23,467 nucleotides of DNA from Kofleriaceae bacterium (GTDB taxonomy: Bacteria; Myxococcota_A; Polyangia; Haliangiales; Haliangiaceae). The stretch lies in the NCBI GenBank assembly GCA_046597055.1, contig JBKJLC010000043.1, positions 1 through 23,467 of the forward strand, in the 5' to 3' direction. This document shows, piece after piece, positions 1,479-21,808 of this stretch. The notes below the pieces were generated by a model, which was not told the origin of the DNA, did not search any database, and was given only the letters and a program-made list of their open reading frames with translations. A program made the position numbers and the translations under genes. Each line of letters begins with the position of its first letter. The stretch's first letter is position 1.

Positions 1479-1536
1479 CGTGGCAGCCCCGTGGCAGCAA
1501 ACGCCTCGCAAAATGCGTAACTATTGTGAACTATTG
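1479..1536. repeat. Two pairs of short tandem direct repeats
   Basis: CGTGGCAGC at 1479-1487 and 1490-1498; AACTATTG at 1519-1526 and 1529-1536. Confidence 0.75.
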
Positions 1537-1537
1537 G

Positions 1538-1580
1538 ACGGCCTCAGACATGTCCCCGGTCTGACGGGCCGTGTTATCCC
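1538..1580 (+). promoter_or_regulatory. Inverted repeat plus extended -10-like element upstream of puuD
   Basis: ACGGCC-TCAGAC (1538-1549) pairs with GTCTGA-cg-GGCCGT (1559-1572). TGtTATCCC at 1572-1580 lies 7 nt before the GTG at 1588. Confidence 0.5.
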
Positions 1581-1587
1581 GCGACCT

Positions 1588-2778
1588 GTGCAGGCCAACG
1601 AGCTGCTGGATGTCTTCTTTCGCTGGGCCCACCTGATCGCCGGGATCATGTGGATCGGCAACTCGATGCTCTTCAACTGGCTCGATCGCAACCTGATCGC
1701 GCCGCCCCCGGGCGCTGCCCACCGCCTCTCGCAGGGCAAGATCTACATGGTCCACTCCGGGGCCTTCTACGAGGTGGAGAAGAAGCTGCTCGAGCCCGGC
1801 CAGCTGCCCCAGGAGCTGCACTGGTTCAAGTGGCAGAACTTCCTGACCTGGCTCACCGGCATCTCGCTGCTGGTGATCGTCTACTACCTGAACGACGCGG
1901 CGTTCCTGATCGACCCGTCGGTCAAGGCGATGTCGCAGGGCGAGGCGATCGCCTGGTCGGTCAGCACGCTGGTCATGGGCTGGGTGGTCTACGACCTGAT
2001 CTGGATGACGCTCGGCAAGCGGACGCCGGCGATCGGGACGCTGCTCTCGTTCGTGCTGCTGTTCGGCGCCGCCTACGGGTTCACGCTGCTGTTCAGCGGC
2101 CGCGCGGCGTACATCCAGACCGGCGTCCTGATGGGGACCGTGATGACCGGCAACGTGTGGCTGCGCATCCTGCCGTCGCAGAAGGAGCTCATCGCGTCGA
2201 CGAAGTCGGGCCAGGAGCAGGACCCCACCCTCTCGGTCCGCGCCAAGCAGCGCTCGATCCACAACAACTACCTGACCTTCCCGTTGCTGTTCATCATGAT
2301 CAGCAACCACTTCGCGAGCACCTACAGTCACCACCTCAACTGGCTGGTGCTGATCGTGATCATGGTCGGCGGCGCCGGCGTCCGTCACTTCATGAACGTG
2401 CGCTACGCGGGCAAGGCGTGGCTGATGCCGGCGTTCGTGATGGCCGCGCTCGGCCTGGGCGGCATGGTGACGCTCACCCGCGTGCGTGAGGCGCCGGCGG
2501 TGACGGTCACCGGCCAGGTCACGTTCGCGCGCGCGCAGGAGATCATCATCGCGCGGTGCGCGTCGTGCCACAGCGCGCGACCGACCGACCCGACCTTCCC
2601 GATCGCGCCCGGCAACATCGTGTTCGACACCTCCGACCGCATCAAGGCGATGGCGGCCCGCATCAAGGATCGCGCCGTGGTGAACCAGACGATGCCGTTC
2701 CTCAACCGCACCGAGATGACCGAGACCGAGCGCGCCGAGCTGGGCGCCTGGATCGATCAGGGAGCCAGGCTCCAGTGA
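1588..2778 (+). CDS. puuD: Membrane urate hydroxylase with C-terminal cytochrome c (PuuD family)
   Basis: Family motifs RWAHLIAGIMWIGNS, VHSGAFY, LHWFKW, SGRAAYIQTG, RSIHNNYLTFP and MISNHF; multiple TM segments; haem motif CASCH; purine catabolism context. Start moved to GTG 1588. Confidence 0.92.
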   Translation: MQANELLDVFFRWAHLIAGIMWIGNSMLFNWLDRNLIAPPPGAAHRLSQGKIYMVHSGAFYEVEKKLLEPGQLPQELHWFKWQNFLTWLTGISLLVIVYYLNDAAFLIDPSVKAMSQGEAIAWSVSTLVMGWVVYDLIWMTLGKRTPAIGTLLSFVLLFGAAYGFTLLFSGRAAYIQTGVLMGTVMTGNVWLRILPSQKELIASTKSGQEQDPTLSVRAKQRSIHNNYLTFPLLFIMISNHFASTYSHHLNWLVLIVIMVGGAGVRHFMNVRYAGKAWLMPAFVMAALGLGGMVTLTRVREAPAVTVTGQVTFARAQEIIIARCASCHSARPTDPTFPIAPGNIVFDTSDRIKAMAARIKDRAVVNQTMPFLNRTEMTETERAELGAWIDQGARLQ

Positions 2779-4136
2779 CCGCGCCGTGGCAGGCCCGGAT
2801 CGACCGGGTGGTCCGCTCGCGCCGGGTGGTGCTGCCGACCGGCACCGGGCCGGCGGCGATCCACATCGCCAGCGGTCGCATCGCGCAGGTCGCGGCCTGG
2901 GACGACGTCCCGGCCGGGGCCGCGCTCGACGACGTCGGTGACCTCGCGGTCATGCCCGGCATCGTCGACACCCACGTCCACCTCAACGAGCCCGGCCGCA
3001 CCGAGTGGGAGGGCTTCGCGACCGCGACCCGCGCCGCCGCCGCCGGCGGCACGACCACGCTGGTCGACATGCCGCTCAACTCGATCCCACCGACCACGAC
3101 CCGCGAGGGCTTCGCCGCCAAGCGGCTGGCCGCGCGCGGGCAGTGCGCGGTCGACGTCGGCTTCTGGGGCGGCGTGGTGCCCGGCAACCTCGACGAGCTG
3201 GCCGGCATGGTCGAAGACGGCGTGCGCGGCTTCAAGTGCTTCCTGGTCGACTCCGGCGTGCCCGAGTTCGGCTGGGTCGGCGAGCCCGAGCTGACCCCGG
3301 CGATGGGCCGGCTCGCCGGCCTGGCGGTGCCGCTCCTGGTCCACGCCGAGGTGGCCGGCCCCATCGACGATGCGGCGGCCGCGCTGGTCGGCGCCGATCC
3401 CCAGCGCTACGCGACCTACCTGGCATCGCGGCCGCCGGCGGCCGAGGAGGCGGCGATCGCGCTGGTGGTGCGCCTGTGCCGCGCGACCGGCGCCCGCACC
3501 CACATCGTCCATCACTCGGCGGCCAGCGCGCTGCCGCTGATCCGCGGCGCCCGCGCCGAGGGCCTGCCGTTCAGCGCCGAGACCTGTCCGCACTACCTGC
3601 GCTTCGCGGCCGAGACCATCCCCGACGGCGCCACCGCCTTCAAGTGCGCGCCGCCGATCCGCGACGAGGCCAACCGCGAGGCGCTGTGGCAGGCGCTGGC
3701 CGAGGGCGTGATCGAGCTGGTCGCCTCCGACCACTCGCCGTGCACGCCCAACCTCAAGGCGATGGACACCGGCGACTTCGTCAACGCCTGGGGCGGCATC
3801 GCCGGCCTGCAGCTGGCGCTGCCGGTGGTGTGGACCGAGGCGTCGCGACGCGGCCACAGCCTCGACGACGTCGCGCGCTGGATGGCGGCGGGCCCGGCCC
3901 GGCTGGCCGGCCTGACCGGCCGCAAGGGCGCGATCGTGGTCGGCGCCGACGCCGACCTGGTCGTGTTCGACGACGACGAGCAGGTGATCGTGCAGGCGGC
4001 GGCGATCCGCCACCGCCACCCGATCACGCCGTACACCGGCGCGACCCTGCGCGGTCGCGTCCACGCGACCTACCTGCGCGGCGAGCGCATCTACGACGGG
4101 CACGAGGTCGCCGGCGACCTCGGCACGCTGCTGTGA
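2775..4136 (+). CDS. allB: Allantoinase (metal-dependent cyclic amidohydrolase)
   Basis: Motifs PGIVDTHVHLNEPGRTEWEGF, DMPLNSIPPTT, GFKCFL, VHAE, ETCPHYL, FKCAPPIR, SDHSPC and WGGIAGLQ. The GTG start overlaps the puuD stop (GTGA). Confidence 0.95.
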   Translation: MTAPWQARIDRVVRSRRVVLPTGTGPAAIHIASGRIAQVAAWDDVPAGAALDDVGDLAVMPGIVDTHVHLNEPGRTEWEGFATATRAAAAGGTTTLVDMPLNSIPPTTTREGFAAKRLAARGQCAVDVGFWGGVVPGNLDELAGMVEDGVRGFKCFLVDSGVPEFGWVGEPELTPAMGRLAGLAVPLLVHAEVAGPIDDAAAALVGADPQRYATYLASRPPAAEEAAIALVVRLCRATGARTHIVHHSAASALPLIRGARAEGLPFSAETCPHYLRFAAETIPDGATAFKCAPPIRDEANREALWQALAEGVIELVASDHSPCTPNLKAMDTGDFVNAWGGIAGLQLALPVVWTEASRRGHSLDDVARWMAAGPARLAGLTGRKGAIVVGADADLVVFDDDEQVIVQAAAIRHRHPITPYTGATLRGRVHATYLRGERIYDGHEVAGDLGTLL

Positions 4137-4145
4137 GGAGCGCCT

Positions 4146-5648
4146 GTGAGTGACCCCGAGACCCCTGCCTTCCTCGACCTGCCCGACCTCGCGGTCGAGA
4201 CCGTCGGCGGCGCCGCGCTCGCCACCAACGACGACTTCTTCGCCGAGAAGGAGGCCCTCTTGCGCGCCCACCCGGCCGAGTGGCGCGAGCACGCGTACAC
4301 CGATCGTGGCAAGTGGATGGACGGCTGGGAGTCGCGGCGGCGCCGGGACCCTGGCTACGACTGGTGCGTGATCCGGCTCGGCATGCCCGGCGTGATCCGC
4401 GGCGTGGTGGTCGACACCGCCTACTTCCGCGGCAACTACCCGGCCGCGTGCTCGATCGAGGCCTGCGAGATCGACGCGCCGCTCGACCTCGCCGCGCTGG
4501 CGACCGCGACCTGGACCGAGGTCCTGCCGCAAGCCGCGCTCGGCGGCGATCGCAAGAACCTGTTCGCGATCACGCACCCGGGCCGGGTCACCCACCTGCG
4601 GCTCAACATCTTCCCCGACGGCGGCGTCGCCCGCCTGCGCGTGCACGGCGAGGCGGTCCCGCGCTGGTCGCGCCTGACCGCGCTCGGCGGCGTGGTCGAT
4701 CTGGCCGCGCTCGAGCACGGCGCGGTGGTCGAGACCTGCAGCGACATGTTCTTCGGCTCGCGCAACAACCTGATCAAGCCAGGCCCGTCGCGGTCGATGG
4801 CCGACGGCTGGGAGACCCGCCGTCGGCGCGGTCCTGGCAACGACTGGGCGATCGTGCGGCTGGCTGCGCGGGGCGTGATCGAGCGGGTCGAGCTCGACAC
4901 CTCGCACTTCAAGGGCAACGCGCCCGGCCGCTGCGTGCTCGAGGGCACCGATGCGCCCGGCGTCGCCGCCGACCAGCTCGCTGGCTGGCGGGTGCTGCTG
5001 GCGACCCCGGCCCAGCCCCACACCCGCCACGTGTTCGACGACGAGCTGCGCCGGATCGGCGCGGTCAGCCACGTCCGCCTCAGCGTCTTTCCCGACGGCG
5101 GCGTCGCCCGCCTGCGGGTGTGGGGCGCGCCGGTCCTGCCGGCTTCCTACGGTGTCACCGCGCTCAACGCGCTGCCGGCCGCGGACGCTGCCGCCGCGCT
5201 GCGCCGCTGCTGTGGCGCGTCGCGCTGGGCCGAGACCATGGCCGCGCTGCGGCCGTTCGAGGACGTCGCCGCGCTGCTGCGCCAGGGCGAGCAGGTGTGG
5301 TGGTCGCTGGGCGAGCCCGACTGGCTGGAGGCGTTCGCCGCTCACCCGCGGATCGGCGAGCGCGGCGAGCGCACGCCCGGCTCGGTGTGGTCGAGCACCG
5401 AGCAGCAGGGCGCGGCGGTGGCCGCGAGCGACCTCCAGGCCGAGCTGGCGACGGCCAACGCGAGCTACGCCCAGAAGCTCGGCTTCATCTACATCGTGTG
5501 CGCGACCGGGCGCTCGGCCGAGGAGATGCTGGCCGACCTCAAGATGCGCATCGACGGCGGCCGGGCCGGCGAGCTGCGCACCGCCGCCGAGGAGCAGGCC
5601 AAGATCACCCGGCTGCGCCTGCGGAAGCTGGTCGAGGAGCTGTCATGA
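4146..5648 (+). CDS. alc: Bifunctional allantoicase / OHCU decarboxylase fusion
   Basis: Two allantoicase repeats (DGWESRRRR and DGWETRRRR, each followed by IFPDGG/VFPDGG-VARLRV) up to about 5130. A UraD domain follows (CCGASRW, AFAAHPRIG, STEQQG, YAQKLGFIYIVCATG, EQAKITRLRL). Confidence 0.92.
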   Translation: MSDPETPAFLDLPDLAVETVGGAALATNDDFFAEKEALLRAHPAEWREHAYTDRGKWMDGWESRRRRDPGYDWCVIRLGMPGVIRGVVVDTAYFRGNYPAACSIEACEIDAPLDLAALATATWTEVLPQAALGGDRKNLFAITHPGRVTHLRLNIFPDGGVARLRVHGEAVPRWSRLTALGGVVDLAALEHGAVVETCSDMFFGSRNNLIKPGPSRSMADGWETRRRRGPGNDWAIVRLAARGVIERVELDTSHFKGNAPGRCVLEGTDAPGVAADQLAGWRVLLATPAQPHTRHVFDDELRRIGAVSHVRLSVFPDGGVARLRVWGAPVLPASYGVTALNALPAADAAAALRRCCGASRWAETMAALRPFEDVAALLRQGEQVWWSLGEPDWLEAFAAHPRIGERGERTPGSVWSSTEQQGAAVAASDLQAELATANASYAQKLGFIYIVCATGRSAEEMLADLKMRIDGGRAGELRTAAEEQAKITRLRLRKLVEELS

Positions 5649-5977
5649 TCACGACCCACGTCCTCGACACCGCCGAGGGCCGCCCGGCCCGCGACGTCCC
5701 GATCCGGCTCGACCGGCACGACGGCGACGAGTGGCGCGAGGTCGGCGCCGGCGCCACCGACCTCGACGGCCGCCTGCGCACGCTGACCCCCGAGGGCCCG
5801 GTCGCGCCCGGCCGGTACCGCCTCGCCTTCGACACTGCCGCCTACTTCGCGGCCCGCGACGTCGACGGCTTCTTCCCGGTGGTCGAGATCCAGTTCACGA
5901 TCGTCGACGGCACCGCGCACTACCACGTCCCGCTGCTGCTCAGCCCGTTCGGCTACTCGACGTACCGCGGCAGCTGA
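5645..5977 (+). CDS. uraH: 5-hydroxyisourate hydrolase (transthyretin-like)
   Basis: MITTHVLDTAEGRPA, TDLDGR, FFP, HYHVPLLLSPFGYSTYRGS with the C-terminal YRGS signature. ATGA overlap with the previous stop. Confidence 0.96.
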   Translation: MITTHVLDTAEGRPARDVPIRLDRHDGDEWREVGAGATDLDGRLRTLTPEGPVAPGRYRLAFDTAAYFAARDVDGFFPVVEIQFTIVDGTAHYHVPLLLSPFGYSTYRGS

Positions 5978-10163: not shown

Positions 10164-10309
10164 CCGGCTGATCGGCGGCGCGTCGCGGCGCCGCCGACCG
10201 TCCGCGCGGCGATGCGTGGGGCACCACCACCGGCTCGATTGCGTGCCCACGCAGGCCGCGGGTCTGCGAGCGCCTCGGCGCATGGGCGGCCGGTCTGCTA
10301 TGAATCGGC

Positions 10310-10519
10310 ATGACCGAGCACGGCCCAGAGTCCGACCCGACGCCGCGGCTTCGGCCGCGCGGCTTCATACCGGTCCTCGGCGCGCTCGCCGGCGCCGCCG
10401 CAGGACTTGCCTACTACTGGTTCGTAGGCTGCGATAGCGGTTGAGCCTCACAATCGAACCCCGTGATCGCGACCGGTCTCGGCGCGGCGCTGGGTCTCGT
10501 TGCGACCGTGAGTCGCTGA
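10310..10519 (+). CDS. Small two-TM DUF6132-like membrane protein with in-frame TGA (candidate selenoprotein)
   Basis: MTEHGPESDPTPRLRPRGFIPVLGALAGAAAGLAYYWFVGCDSG-[TGA 10442-10444]-ASQSNPVIATGLGAALGLVATVSR*. Similarity to the DUF6132 pattern as I recall it (YYxFVGCxSGxCxITSNP..G) continues past the TGA. TGcTATGAAT lies just upstream. Confidence 0.7.
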
Positions 10520-18093: not shown

Positions 18094-19044
18094 TTACGGC
18101 GCGCACGCGAGCTGCGCGAGGAAGGCGTCGCGGTCGTCGATGCTGAGCAGCAGCTGCGACGACGGCCGCGACCGGCCGAACAGGCCATGCACCTCGACGG
18201 GCGTGTGCAGCGTGAGCAACACGTTGGGGTCGGTGTACGAGAGATCGGTCGCACCGGTCACGGCGGACTCGATCGGCGCAGCGCTCGCGATGACCTCGCG
18301 CGGCACAGTCACGCGCCTCGTGACCCCGCGTTCGATCACGACCCCCACGGGGGTGAACCGCAGCGGCGCGAGACGGACCGCGTGGGCGGAGCCGATGAGC
18401 CAGAGGAGCCCATACGCGGATAACGCCGACAGGACGACCGCGAGGGTCGGTGCAAACCGAACGAGGATGACGTGCATCGCGACCGCTTCGACCAACGCGA
18501 GCACGGCGAGCACGCCGAAGAACATCAGGACCCCGGAGCGACGATGCATCGTGAACCCACCCGGCGCTGCCCGGAACCAGCCGGTCAACGCGAGGACGAG
18601 AATCGCGACCTCGGCGGCGAGCACGCTCGCGACGGCCGGCACCGGGATCGCCTCGCGAAATGCGCCGTCGAGGGCCGCCGGCAGGCCATGCCCCTGGTTC
18701 CGCCGCGCACGCACGTCGCGCAGCACGCGACGACCACGTACCAAGATCGAGCACACGATCGCCGCTTCGATCACGATCGCGACCACCCCGAGTGCGCGCA
18801 ACCCGACGAGCATCCGCGCAGCCGCGCAGCCGAGCACGAGCACGCGGACCAGCGCCGCTGGCCGCGCGTGACCGGGCCGGACCGCGAGCAGCCAGAACCA
18901 GGCCGCCGCGGTGAGCGTGAGGTCCGCCGCGACCGCGATGCCGAGCGATGGATACGCCGGCAGGAGCGTGAACGCGATCACGACCGCGCACGCGTAGACG
19001 GCAGCGATGGCGAGCAGCGCGGGCAGCAGCACGGGTCGGGTCAC
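18094..19044 (-). CDS. Hypothetical multi-pass membrane protein
   Basis: Several hydrophobic segments, an FTMHRRSG motif and a soluble beta-rich C-terminus (PNVLLTL..HGLFG..LLLSIDD). Start uncertain: GTG 19044 versus 19104 in the ORF track. Confidence 0.8.
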   Translation of the reverse strand: MTRPVLLPALLAIAAVYACAVVIAFTLLPAYPSLGIAVAADLTLTAAAWFWLLAVRPGHARPAALVRVLVLGCAAARMLVGLRALGVVAIVIEAAIVCSILVRGRRVLRDVRARRNQGHGLPAALDGAFREAIPVPAVASVLAAEVAILVLALTGWFRAAPGGFTMHRRSGVLMFFGVLAVLALVEAVAMHVILVRFAPTLAVVLSALSAYGLLWLIGSAHAVRLAPLRFTPVGVVIERGVTRRVTVPREVIASAAPIESAVTGATDLSYTDPNVLLTLHTPVEVHGLFGRSRPSSQLLLSIDDRDAFLAQLACAP

Positions 19045-19294
19045 TCGGCTTCGATGCGGCCCGCGTGGAGATCGCTTGATTGCCGCGGCCGCGCTGGCAG
19101 GCACCGGTGCCGGCCAACGCGGCGCTCCATGGCACTCGTGTCCACTGCTCGTTCGTGCGTCGTCCTGGTGGGTATCAGTCGCTCACTCGCTCGATCACGG
19201 CCTCTGGCTGGGGAGGGGCTGGGGCTCCCCATGGCAAGCTGCCCCGGTCATCCGGGGTGGCCCGCCGCTGCCATCCGGCCGACCGGGGAGTCTC

Positions 19295-20299
19295 ATGGAA
19301 CGCAAGCTCGTCTCGATCCAGCGCGTCGACAGCGTCGAACCGATCGTCGGCGCCGACAACATCGTGAAGGCCCGGGTGATGGGCTGGGACGTCGTGATCA
19401 AGAAGACCGAGCTCGCCCCGGGCGATCCGTGCGTGTTCTTCGAGATCGACAGCGTCCTGCCCGAGGGCCAGCCCTGGGCCGAGTTCATGCGACCGCGCGG
19501 CTTCCGCGTGAAGACCGCACGCCTGCGCGGCGTGCTCTCGCAGGGCCTGGCGATGCCGGTCGACATCTTGCCCGCGGGCGTCGCGCTGCCCGCGATCGGC
19601 ACCGACCTCGGCGATCTGCTCGGCGTCGTGAAGTTCGAGCCAGTGCTGCCCGACGCCCGCGAGGTGGCCGGCCCGTTTCCCGGCCAGGTGCCCAGGACCG
19701 ACGAGCTCCGCCTGCAGTCGGCGCTGGCCGTGCTCGACGAGCTGCGCGGCCGCGACTTCGTCGTGACCACCAAGCTCGACGGCACCTCGGCGACCTACTT
19801 CCGCCCGCTCGACGGTGAGCTGGTCGCGTGCTCGCGGAACTGGGCGCTCCGGCCGGGCCCCAACCCGGTGTGGCGGATGGCCGAGAAGTACCAGCTCGCG
19901 ACCACGCTGCCGCCCGGGGTCGCCATCCAGGGCGAGCTGTGCGGCCCCGGCATCCAGAAGAACCGACTCGGCCTGGCCGAGCTCGAGCTGTTCGTGTTCA
20001 GCGTCCACGACACCCGCGACGGCCGCTTCCTCGGCCACGACGAGACCGTGCGCTTCTGCGCGGCGCATGGGCTGACCCCGGTGCCGGTCGAGCTGCGGGT
20101 CGACGGTGACGATGCCGCGACCTTCGAGCACTCGCTGGCCGTCTACCTCAGGCTGGCCCAGGGCCTCTACCGGGGCACCCGCAGCCGCAAGGAGGGCATC
20201 GTGGTCCGCCCGCTGATCGAGGCGCAGTCGCCGACGCTGGGCGGTCGGCTGTCGTTCAAGGTGATCAACAACGACTTCTTGCTGAAGGACGAGGCCTGA
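19295..20299 (+). CDS. ATP-dependent RNA ligase, DRB0094/Rnl5 family
   Basis: N-terminal MERKLVSIQR..GADNI..VFFEIDS..LRGVLSQGL, then PRTDELRLQ. Nucleotidyltransferase motifs: KLDGTS (I), IQGELCG (III), LFVFSV (IIIa), KEGIVVR (IV), SFKVINNDFLLK (V). SD GGGGAG at 19285-19290. Confidence 0.93.
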   Translation: MERKLVSIQRVDSVEPIVGADNIVKARVMGWDVVIKKTELAPGDPCVFFEIDSVLPEGQPWAEFMRPRGFRVKTARLRGVLSQGLAMPVDILPAGVALPAIGTDLGDLLGVVKFEPVLPDAREVAGPFPGQVPRTDELRLQSALAVLDELRGRDFVVTTKLDGTSATYFRPLDGELVACSRNWALRPGPNPVWRMAEKYQLATTLPPGVAIQGELCGPGIQKNRLGLAELELFVFSVHDTRDGRFLGHDETVRFCAAHGLTPVPVELRVDGDDAATFEHSLAVYLRLAQGLYRGTRSRKEGIVVRPLIEAQSPTLGGRLSFKVINNDFLLKDEA

Positions 20300-20323: not shown

Positions 20324-21697
20324 TTACTCCTCGACGCGCTTGCGGTCGAGCCAGGCCTCGATGTCGCCCTCGAAGGCGGCGAAGGCGTCCGGGTTGTGGA
20401 TCTGCAGCTCCCGCCGCGCGCGCGCGATGGCGTCGTCGGCCTCGTCGCTGTCCCGACCGGCGGTGTCGAGCAACATGTTCATCGGGCTCGGTTCGTCGGC
20501 ATGGGTCGAGAACATCGCGCGCACGATCTTGCGCGCGTCCTTCGCGGTCGCGTCCACGGCCTGCCACTCGCCGAGCACCGCCACCAGCCCGCGCTCACCC
20601 TTGCCCTTCAGCTGGGCCTTGTCGGTCGACGCCCAGCTCGGGTTGTCGCGCTGCCGCGCACACAGGTAGTTGTGGGCTCGGGTGAGCAGCTGGTCGGCGG
20701 CGGCCGGCGTGCGGGCGCCATCGACCGGCGTGATGACCACGGCACTGTCGATCACCTCGACCCCGCTCATCGCGATGATGCTGTCCAGGATCGCATCGGC
20801 GTCTTCCAGCCGTTGCCCGGCAAGCCGGTCGAGCGCATGCGTGATCGCGACCCACGCAACCTTGTGCTGACCTTGCTTGGTCTCCTCGCCGTCCTGGTAG
20901 ACCGGCGGGCGTGCGGGCGTCGCGAGGAGCCACTTGATCTCGTAGTCGCCCACCTCGTCGGCTTCGACCCGACCGCGGTCCGGATGTTTGAGGGACAACT
21001 TCGCGAAGGGGGTGCTCAGCACGAGCTCCTGTCGGTACGGCGGATCGCCCTTGCGCTGCACCATCTGCGACACGGCCTGGCCGTCACCGGCGCGAACATC
21101 CAGCAGCGACTCCGCGCTGGCGCCAGCGACCACCCGATCGGCCACCGCGTCGGCATGCTGCTCGTACACATCCCCCGCCGCGCCGACGCCGCCCGCGAGC
21201 TGCACGCCGCCACGCTGCTGCACCACGTGCGCCGCCTCGTGGGCAGCGGTGTGCAGGTCCGGCGTGCCGCCGAACGCGACGGCGTTGCCGGTCGCGTAGG
21301 CCTGCGCGCCGATCGCGGCGTTGGCCTCGGCCGCCGCGCCGCCGGTGTACGCCTGCACGGTCCGGACGTCGTGCCGGCCGAAGCTGGTCTGGATCTGCTC
21401 GAGGAACGGCAGCGACGTGCCGCTACCGCTCACGCCGCGCGCCGCATGGACGGCTGGCTGCTCGCCGTCGAGCTCGCCGTCGAGCGCCTGGACCGGCCCG
21501 GTCGCAAACCAGAACGGGTCCGGGGTCGGCATTCCCGCCAGCGCCACATCTGCAATGGAGGACGACGGGGCGATCGCGTCCGGCGCCGTGACCGCCCGGC
21601 GCTGGATGGCGTCGGTGAGGGCCCGCTTGCCGGGTGCCGGACGGTCGACGCCGTGAGCTCCGTCCACGAACGAGGAAGACGCCCTGAAGTCGCGCAT
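20324..21697 (-). CDS. DUF4157 (eCIS core domain) protein with an uncharacterised C-terminal domain
   Basis: [55 protein letters not shown] (HExxH at 21227-21241); N-terminal PGKRALT; VQRK linker. Start ATG 21697 chosen from the promoter position. Confidence 0.88.
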
Positions 21698-21709
21698 GCC
21701 GGCAGCAAC

Positions 21710-21725
21710 AGCACGGGCCGGGCCA
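21710..21725 (-). promoter_or_regulatory. Sigma54-type -24/-12 promoter
   Basis: Minus-strand TGGCCCGGCCCGTGCT has GG-N10-GC spacing. The ATG is 13 nt after the GC, the same spacing as at 6679-6707. Confidence 0.55.
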
Positions 21726-21770
21726 GCGGGACCGCGTGGTGGGACGTGGACCTGGACACGACCCCGCCGG

Positions 21771-21808
21771 GTTGAACGGTCCATCAACGGCGCACTGGAC
21801 GGTTCAGC
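21771..21808. repeat. Imperfect inverted repeat (enhancer site or terminator)
   Basis: GTTGAACGGTCCA-N12-TGGACGGTTCAGC, between the GGDEF stop and the DUF4157 promoter. Confidence 0.6.

Follow-up and report, generated by a model that had tools for sequence, protein, structure and literature searches.

A 2026 catalogue of bacterial selenoproteins lists 119 families (PMC13188914, Table 1). Catalogued families with cysteine homologues have an in-frame UGA at the position of a conserved Cys, occur in Sec-positive genomes only and carry a hairpin downstream of the UGA, with a G at the start of its loop at a distance of 16–37 nt. The gene described here shares these features. The catalogued proteins, however, mostly adopt a thioredoxin fold or are enzymes, whereas the predicted product of our locus is a two-helix microprotein. 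Neither a row for DUF6132 nor a CxxxU motif is present in the table of 119 families. The family was also not seen in the portions covered of PMC13326102, PMC12013277, PMC13745706 and bioRxiv 10.1101/2022.07.06.499078 (in three of these the string "6132" occurs 0 times in those portions), and the rows containing "6132" in the portion examined of the BSepDB supplement are accession numbers only. Full-text literature searches for DUF6132 or PF19628, for CPITSNP or CxxxU and for selenoproteins of Myxococcota returned nothing relevant among the matches listed.

The closest described proteins are the Cys forms of DUF6132 (PF19628). They have in common with the locus two Gly-rich helices, a YY-x3-GC-x-SG loop, an SNP motif and both chalcogen positions. 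In contrast to them, the locus has Sec in place of the second Cys, a spacing of three instead of four residues between the two positions and no ITS. It stands alone and is apparently leaderless, whereas the Cys forms lie in a thioredoxin-CcdA operon, and its protein scores below the Pfam cut-off. Among the best 150 proteins of the wider family, the Cys spacing is four in 144 and three in 4 of the 148 that could be parsed; both Cys residues are visible in the other two.

Gene and predicted product

The window, i.e. the whole stretch of 23,467 nucleotides that was analysed, contains an ORF that starts with the ATG at 10310, has a TGA as codon 45 and continues for 24 more codons to a terminal TGA at 10517–10519. 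An in-frame TGA lies three codons ahead of this ATG, which is therefore the sole possible start. The translation agrees with an earlier, sequence-only reading of this DNA, which had proposed such an ORF with an internal TGA and a terminal stop and had expected gene callers to miss it. Indeed, translation table 11 yields an ORF of only 44 aa at the locus, and in databases the gene calls for its relatives stop at the same GCxSG, as stubs of 35–55 residues. The ORF is a real, unannotated gene. Its features are listed in Table 1.

Table 1. Features of the locus, in coordinates of the window.
Feature	Position	Strand	Basis
Possible extended -10 element just 5' of the ATG (leaderless transcript); last base of the hexamer off consensus here	10296–10305	+	inferred
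Gene; predicted product is a DUF6132-related membrane protein of 69 residues, with the in-frame TGA decoded as Sec45	10310–10519	+	translation, TGA conservation, profile matches
Helix 1, residues 19–39, Gly/Ala-rich; basic RLRPR ahead	10364–10426	+	AlphaFold model, charge count
Cys41, first residue of the CxxxU pair, invariant	10430–10432	+	28/28 and 34/34 alignment rows
In-frame TGA (predicted Sec45) opposite the invariant second Cys of DUF6132	10442–10444	+	alignments; TGA in 44/44 in-frame metagenome homologues
SECIS-like hairpin; apical loop GUCU at 10476–10479, 31 nt past the UGA	10455–10499	+	fold and comparative pairing
Helix 2, residues 51–67, downstream of the TGA, overlaps the hairpin	10460–10510	+	model, alignment, coding conservation

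The AlphaFold model consists of two helices with a mean pLDDT of 77, which drops to ~63 in the loop between them. Two helices flanking the loop had been predicted from the letters alone; their hydropathy reaches only modest peaks (1.49 and 1.43 in 19-residue windows). A Foldseek search of the model against the PDB gave zero matches at E ≤0.001. Across the genome, an HMM built solely from 34 Cys relatives matched this ORF and nothing else (55 bits, E 1.9e-14), so a chance match can be dismissed. Contigs from three of four sequencing runs span the TGA codon and show no alternative letter there; the three covering runs belong to one study, one of them is possibly the source, and the fourth run has no coverage of the codon.

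Relation to DUF6132

Pfam and NCBIfam scans of the 69-residue protein returned no family, and the DUF6132 HMM (PF19628, gathering cut-off 23.2 bits) recognised the locus in neither a protein nor a genome search. None of 11 myxobacterial Sec forms reaches this cut-off (best score 20.6 bits); 14 of the 17 Cys relatives tested pass it. With the same HMM, 3 of 61 relatives scored above the cut-off. One form with a CxxxxU motif (L132) passes with 23.4 bits, and another gave no hit. Because the DUF6132 HMM misses the Sec protein, the link to this family runs through the Cys relatives. Full-length homology to proteins passing the cut-off is present, and a profile-profile comparison of Sec and Cys forms gave a match probability of 99.6%, with U placed opposite the second Cys and a gap of one residue.

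The alignment thus bears out the earlier placement of the TGA on the second Cys, one residue closer to the first; the shorter loop is found in 51 of 54 TGA genes. The loop of the protein reads C-x3-U-ASQSNP and does not match the C-x4-C-x-ITSNP of DUF6132. The description as DUF6132-like holds in that the matching Cys relatives are DUF6132 proteins, but not in the formal sense, as the HMM of the family passes over the protein itself. Judged from these comparisons, the predicted protein is a member of a DUF6132-related CxxxU subfamily and not a formal member of DUF6132. The wider family comprises 1500 cluster representatives at E ≤0.001. A word-index search with the single protein as query yielded 1 hit. 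Among 8000 candidates scored for longer, fused forms there was 1 protein, apparently a mis-joined call, which is weak evidence either way.

Conservation of the TGA codon

When 301 genomes of the class were sampled, each of the 14 top matches (the locus included) contained one in-frame TGA. A profile of 13 Sec forms matched 54 of 138 genomes of the family, of which 50 carry the TGA form and 4 a stop-free form only; the family tallies (the 138 genomes and the selA counts below) include the unpublished genomes G347 and G348, whose loci were used in no alignment and in no other count. Scanning all species genomes for a TGA-only pattern gave 49 loci, from which 13 chance matches were dropped. The remaining 36 are homologues: 32 come from entries titled Kofleriaceae, Haliangiales, Myxococcota or Deltaproteobacteria, and four are of low GC content, two of these titled Ca. 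Delongbacteria. In a metagenome scan that allowed TGA, TAA, TAG or TGG at the site, 44 of 46 matches were in-frame homologues (several of them duplicates) and two were dropped as chance matches. All 44 have TGA, with none having TAA, TAG or TGG; 39 are CxxxU and 5 are CxxxxU forms. Some bias towards TGA at the site is to be expected, since TGA accounts for 2726 of the 3618 stops in the genome. At their ends, however, 54 distinct TGA genes use different stops (41 TGA, 7 TAA and 6 TAG), whereas the internal codon is unchanged. Relatives thus keep the TGA, the outcome that the sequence-only reading had named as support.

Another three TGA forms were found outside the family but within the class; two of them retain IT-x-NP, and the third has IS-x-SP. 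A weak TGA match in genome G036 was rejected as not homologous. Two TGA-form paralogues each were observed in G015, G297 and G333, and several other genomes have one TGA form and one stop-free form.

The pattern also continues past the TGA, as had been claimed. The following 21 codons are free of in-frame stops in all 50 myxobacterial genes, whereas the +1 frame contains stops in 35 and the +2 frame in 8 of them. The pN/pS ratio after the TGA is 0.75 in frame, the lowest of the six frames, compared with 0.86–1.35 in the other five. It is higher than upstream of the TGA (0.48); this weaker coding signal may reflect an RNA structure that holds synonymous sites. There are also Cys forms that share the short loop and are full length, among them L147, P0005 and P0006.

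Selenocysteine machinery

The genome contains a tRNA-Sec gene (70.4 bits, cut-off 47) as well as selA, selB and selD, all above their curated cut-offs; the complete set proposed as a genome check is therefore present. Its selD has an in-frame TGA of its own. Within the family, selA was found in 45 of the 50 genomes with a TGA form, and four of the five that lack it were checked and each have selB or tRNA-Sec above the cut-off. This co-occurrence says little on its own, because 124 of the 138 family genomes are selA-positive. In the class sample, selA is present in 19 of 21 genomes with a TGA form versus 22 of 44 with only stop-free matches, where sequence was inspected for 18 of the 44 and one partial match was excluded. 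The two selA-less genomes with a TGA form have selB. Fisher's exact test gives p 0.002 for this association, a value that overstates the case since the genomes are related. The four low-GC genomes have tRNA-Sec in 4/4 and selA in 3/4 cases. None of the three findings that had been named as arguments against a selenoprotein, i.e. a genome without Sec machinery, TGC or TGT in all relatives and a lack of conservation after the TGA, was observed.

A second tRNA-SeC call by ARAGORN (G000:C201:10901-10993) is not in the list obtained with the Rfam tRNA-Sec model and is probably spurious. Three more likely selenoproteins with UxxC or CxxU motifs were noticed in the same genome (G000:C30:9797, + strand; C83:20567, + strand; C260:45990, - strand), with peroxiredoxin-like and AhpD-like as tentative labels.

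SECIS-like hairpin

According to the bSECIS model, the loop comprises 3–9 nt with a G at its first or second position and lies 16–37 nt from the UGA (PMC13188914, Fig. 2 legend). The predicted hairpin of the locus agrees with this model. Its folding energy is about -24 kcal/mol, with a z-score versus shuffled sequences of only -1.1 for the single copy. The strict loop rule is satisfied by 28 of 50 Sec genes versus 4 of 20 Cys genes. Taken alone this rule is weak evidence, because a cruder version of it lets through 19 of the genome's 43 motif hits, mostly junk. Resampling of synonymous codons gave a mean z of -2.24 for the Sec genes, with 42 of 50 below -1, and of +0.22 for the Cys genes, with 2 of 20 below -1.

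We scored a register of 17 base pairs, which was derived from the same set of Sec genes: 73% of the cells are paired, and in three of five covariation measures 0 of 500 shuffles scored as high (for the remaining measures the counts were 213 and 250 of 500). At pair 15-57, GC (23 genes), CG (18) and UG (4) replace one another. In the same register the Cys genes are paired in 54% of the cells, a level reached by 419 of 500 shuffles. A held-out set of 30 high-GC genes, taken from 37 new ones, is 72.5% paired, compared with 34–50% when the register is slid. With RNAalifold, neither the 50 Sec genes nor the Cys set yielded a consensus structure, and Rfam gave 0 matches within the window. By comparative pairing the base of the predicted stem is well supported, and its loop is variable.

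Four low-GC relatives (L122, L130, L132 and L138, of Ca. Delongbacteria type) also have a TGA at the equivalent position. They differ from the locus in being mostly CxxxxU forms and in having a shorter and nearer hairpin, with its loop ~17 nt from the UGA. In a 100-row tree their Sec genes form a clade of their own (98/88) among Cys forms; the short-loop Cys forms L147, P0005 and P0006 fall inside the myxobacterial Sec clade, with a support of 84/90 on only 60 columns. The separate clade together with the different, nearer hairpin suggests a second origin of Sec. An AU test with 40 rows did not reject a single Sec origin (p-AU 0.39).

Interpretation of the internal TGA

We predict from these comparisons that the product of the ORF is a selenoprotein with Sec at codon 45, to which we assign a probability of about 0.93. 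If the TGA were a true stop, the product would be a 44-residue peptide with a single anchor, and the conserved DNA downstream would act at the RNA level, for example as a terminator or a stability hairpin. The prevalence of TGA among the stops of this genome would suit this view, a hairpin itself constrains sequence, and some truncated product is expected anyway where Sec insertion is inefficient. We nevertheless consider it very improbable: real stops drift, but neither TAA nor TAG occurs at the site in any of the 44 metagenome homologues, the frame beyond it is open and aligns with helix 2 of the Cys relatives, a terminator-like run of T is absent, and the nested Cys revertants are full length. 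A loop that is one residue off canonical DUF6132, with SQ instead of IT, could also be taken for the mark of a private nonsense mutation, a sequencing error or a pseudogene. The identical codon, however, is present in contigs of three runs and in 54 distinct genes, and the conservation data have already refuted this reading, leaving it a negligible probability.

Two further candidates were rejected. An antisense gene is disfavored by the reverse-strand pN/pS, which lies within the 0.86–1.35 range given above, and by the poor codon-position GC of the overlapping minus-strand ORFs. Reassignment of TGA to Trp or Gly is ruled out, TGA being the main stop of the genome.

Genomic context

Of 52 Sec genes, 25 have the hexamer TAnnnT 4–8 nt ahead of the start and 1 has a Shine-Dalgarno-like word; for 20 Cys genes the counts are 0 and 11. 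The genome background of TAnnnT is 256 of 1997 ORF starts. A scan with consensus promoters at the locus found no promoter. The Sec gene is probably a stand-alone, leaderless transcript in this lineage. Genome-wide, TAnnnT shows a peak 12–15 nt ahead of ATG starts, which suggests that leaderless transcripts are common in the lineage.

Of 20 Cys genes, 15 have a thioredoxin or CcdA gene close by, CcdA-thioredoxin fusions counted in; these operons stem from a few related families, and the neighbours were picked heuristically. For the myxobacterial Sec genes, the nearest picked ORF encodes a thioredoxin, a peroxiredoxin or a rhodanese-lactamase in 7 of 50 cases (94 ORFs scanned), a figure that stands without a background count. 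The window itself contains no neighbour of these three kinds; the adjoining gene encodes a convergent ECF sigma factor. The context of the myxobacterial Sec genes is not conserved, and most copies stand alone. One DsbD_TM gene is located elsewhere in the genome. In all four low-GC loci, in contrast to ours, the gene lies in an operon in the order thioredoxin, Sec-DUF6132, OsmC. Three of these genomes have two thioredoxins, two have an ArsR-family gene after OsmC, and in 3/4 loci one thioredoxin has a start resembling a signal peptide.

Other parts of the window contain, where the contig begins, a gene of the phage integrase family (106–789, + strand), a cluster for purine and urate degradation (1480–5977) with Urate_ox_N, an amidohydrolase, an allantoicase-OHCU decarboxylase fusion and HIUase, an RNA ligase with a PHA02142 OB-fold (19007–20299, + strand) and a protein with an eCIS core domain (20324–21787, - strand). 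On another contig, 25 tRNA genes are arrayed on one strand within ~6.5 kb (G000:C145:67810-74361). Such tRNA arrays occur on mobile elements.

Proposed mechanism

Based on the comparative data and the model we propose the following mechanism, which combines Sec insertion, a periplasmic Cys/Sec relay, recycling by thioredoxin and CcdA and a stand-alone gene, and which as a whole we rate at somewhat better than even odds. SelB bound to the hairpin past the UGA would deliver Sec-tRNA to codon 45, as the comparative evidence suggests. The product would cross the membrane as a hairpin of two helices, its termini lying in the cytoplasm and its loop, G-C41-D-S-G-U45, in the periplasm, according to the model and the positive-inside rule, by which basic residues mark the cytoplasmic side. 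In the Sec forms a mean of 2.7 basic residues precede helix 1 and 1.6 follow helix 2, with 0.5 in the loop, and the wider DUF6132 family has the same distribution. Since basic residues flank the helices and are rare in the loop, the latter is predicted to face the periplasm. There, Cys41 and Sec45 would alternate between a reduced state and a selenenylsulfide, and Sec would be the reactive nucleophile, as deduced from selenoproteins of the CxxU type. From the operons of the relatives we infer that the pair would be re-reduced by an exported thioredoxin fed from CcdA/DsbD, and that the electrons would be handed on to oxidised envelope thiols. In this lineage, the gene would have left the thioredoxin-CcdA operon.

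The same selenoprotein might instead act on sulfane sulfur and serve a rhodanese-persulfide dioxygenase system, with a loop that captures or reduces persulfide or polysulfide at the membrane. Rhodanese-lactamase genes adjoin L114, L120 and L140, DUF302 adjoins L101 and L140, TauE and a lactamase-fold gene adjoin the Cys form L025, and a similar GUxSG motif is tabulated for YeeE/YedE selenoproteins (PMC13188914). We regard this role as unlikely, however, because a rhodanese-lactamase neighbour was found for only 3 of 50 myxobacterial Sec genes, thioredoxin and CcdA dominate near the Cys forms, and no YeeE match at E ≤1 occurred among 28 proteins. By analogy with small membrane proteins of the Mer type, the Cys/Sec pair might also bind a soft metal such as Cu or Hg, for which two chalcogen ligands in the short loop of a two-helix protein would be suited. 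A putative mercuric transport protein is among those catalogued with Sec (PMC13188914). Metal binding appears less probable still, because the Pfam-named neighbours include no Mer or copper-transport genes, only one ArsC and one cation ATPase, and a third conserved ligand is absent from the alignments.

By analogy with the relatives, the protein most likely functions as a small redox relay at the outer face of the cell membrane. The sequence-only reading had likewise proposed a Sec-containing membrane redox microprotein; of this, the Sec is supported by the conserved TGA and the machinery, and the redox role is deduced only from the motif and the neighbours of relatives.

Significance

The recoding mechanism itself is standard. 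As selenocysteine usually marks a catalytic redox residue, the TGA indicates which residue is the working one in a family that is still uncharacterised. More speculatively, and at odds well below even, the protein could be a minimal integral-membrane selenoenzyme, a two-helix hairpin in which a single periplasmic selenol ends the thioredoxin-CcdA chain. Sec would then have been recruited repeatedly by phyla that are not related, with a SECIS inside the coding region of helix 2 that differs from case to case, and the myxobacterial gene would have become an independently transcribed envelope redox catalyst. Going by the conserved TGA genes, a widespread DUF6132-related family is very probably added to the bacterial selenoproteome, one that is missing from the catalogue of PMC13188914 and whose Sec-encoding genes the databases hold as truncated stubs. 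With its working residue indicated, the function of this family becomes testable.
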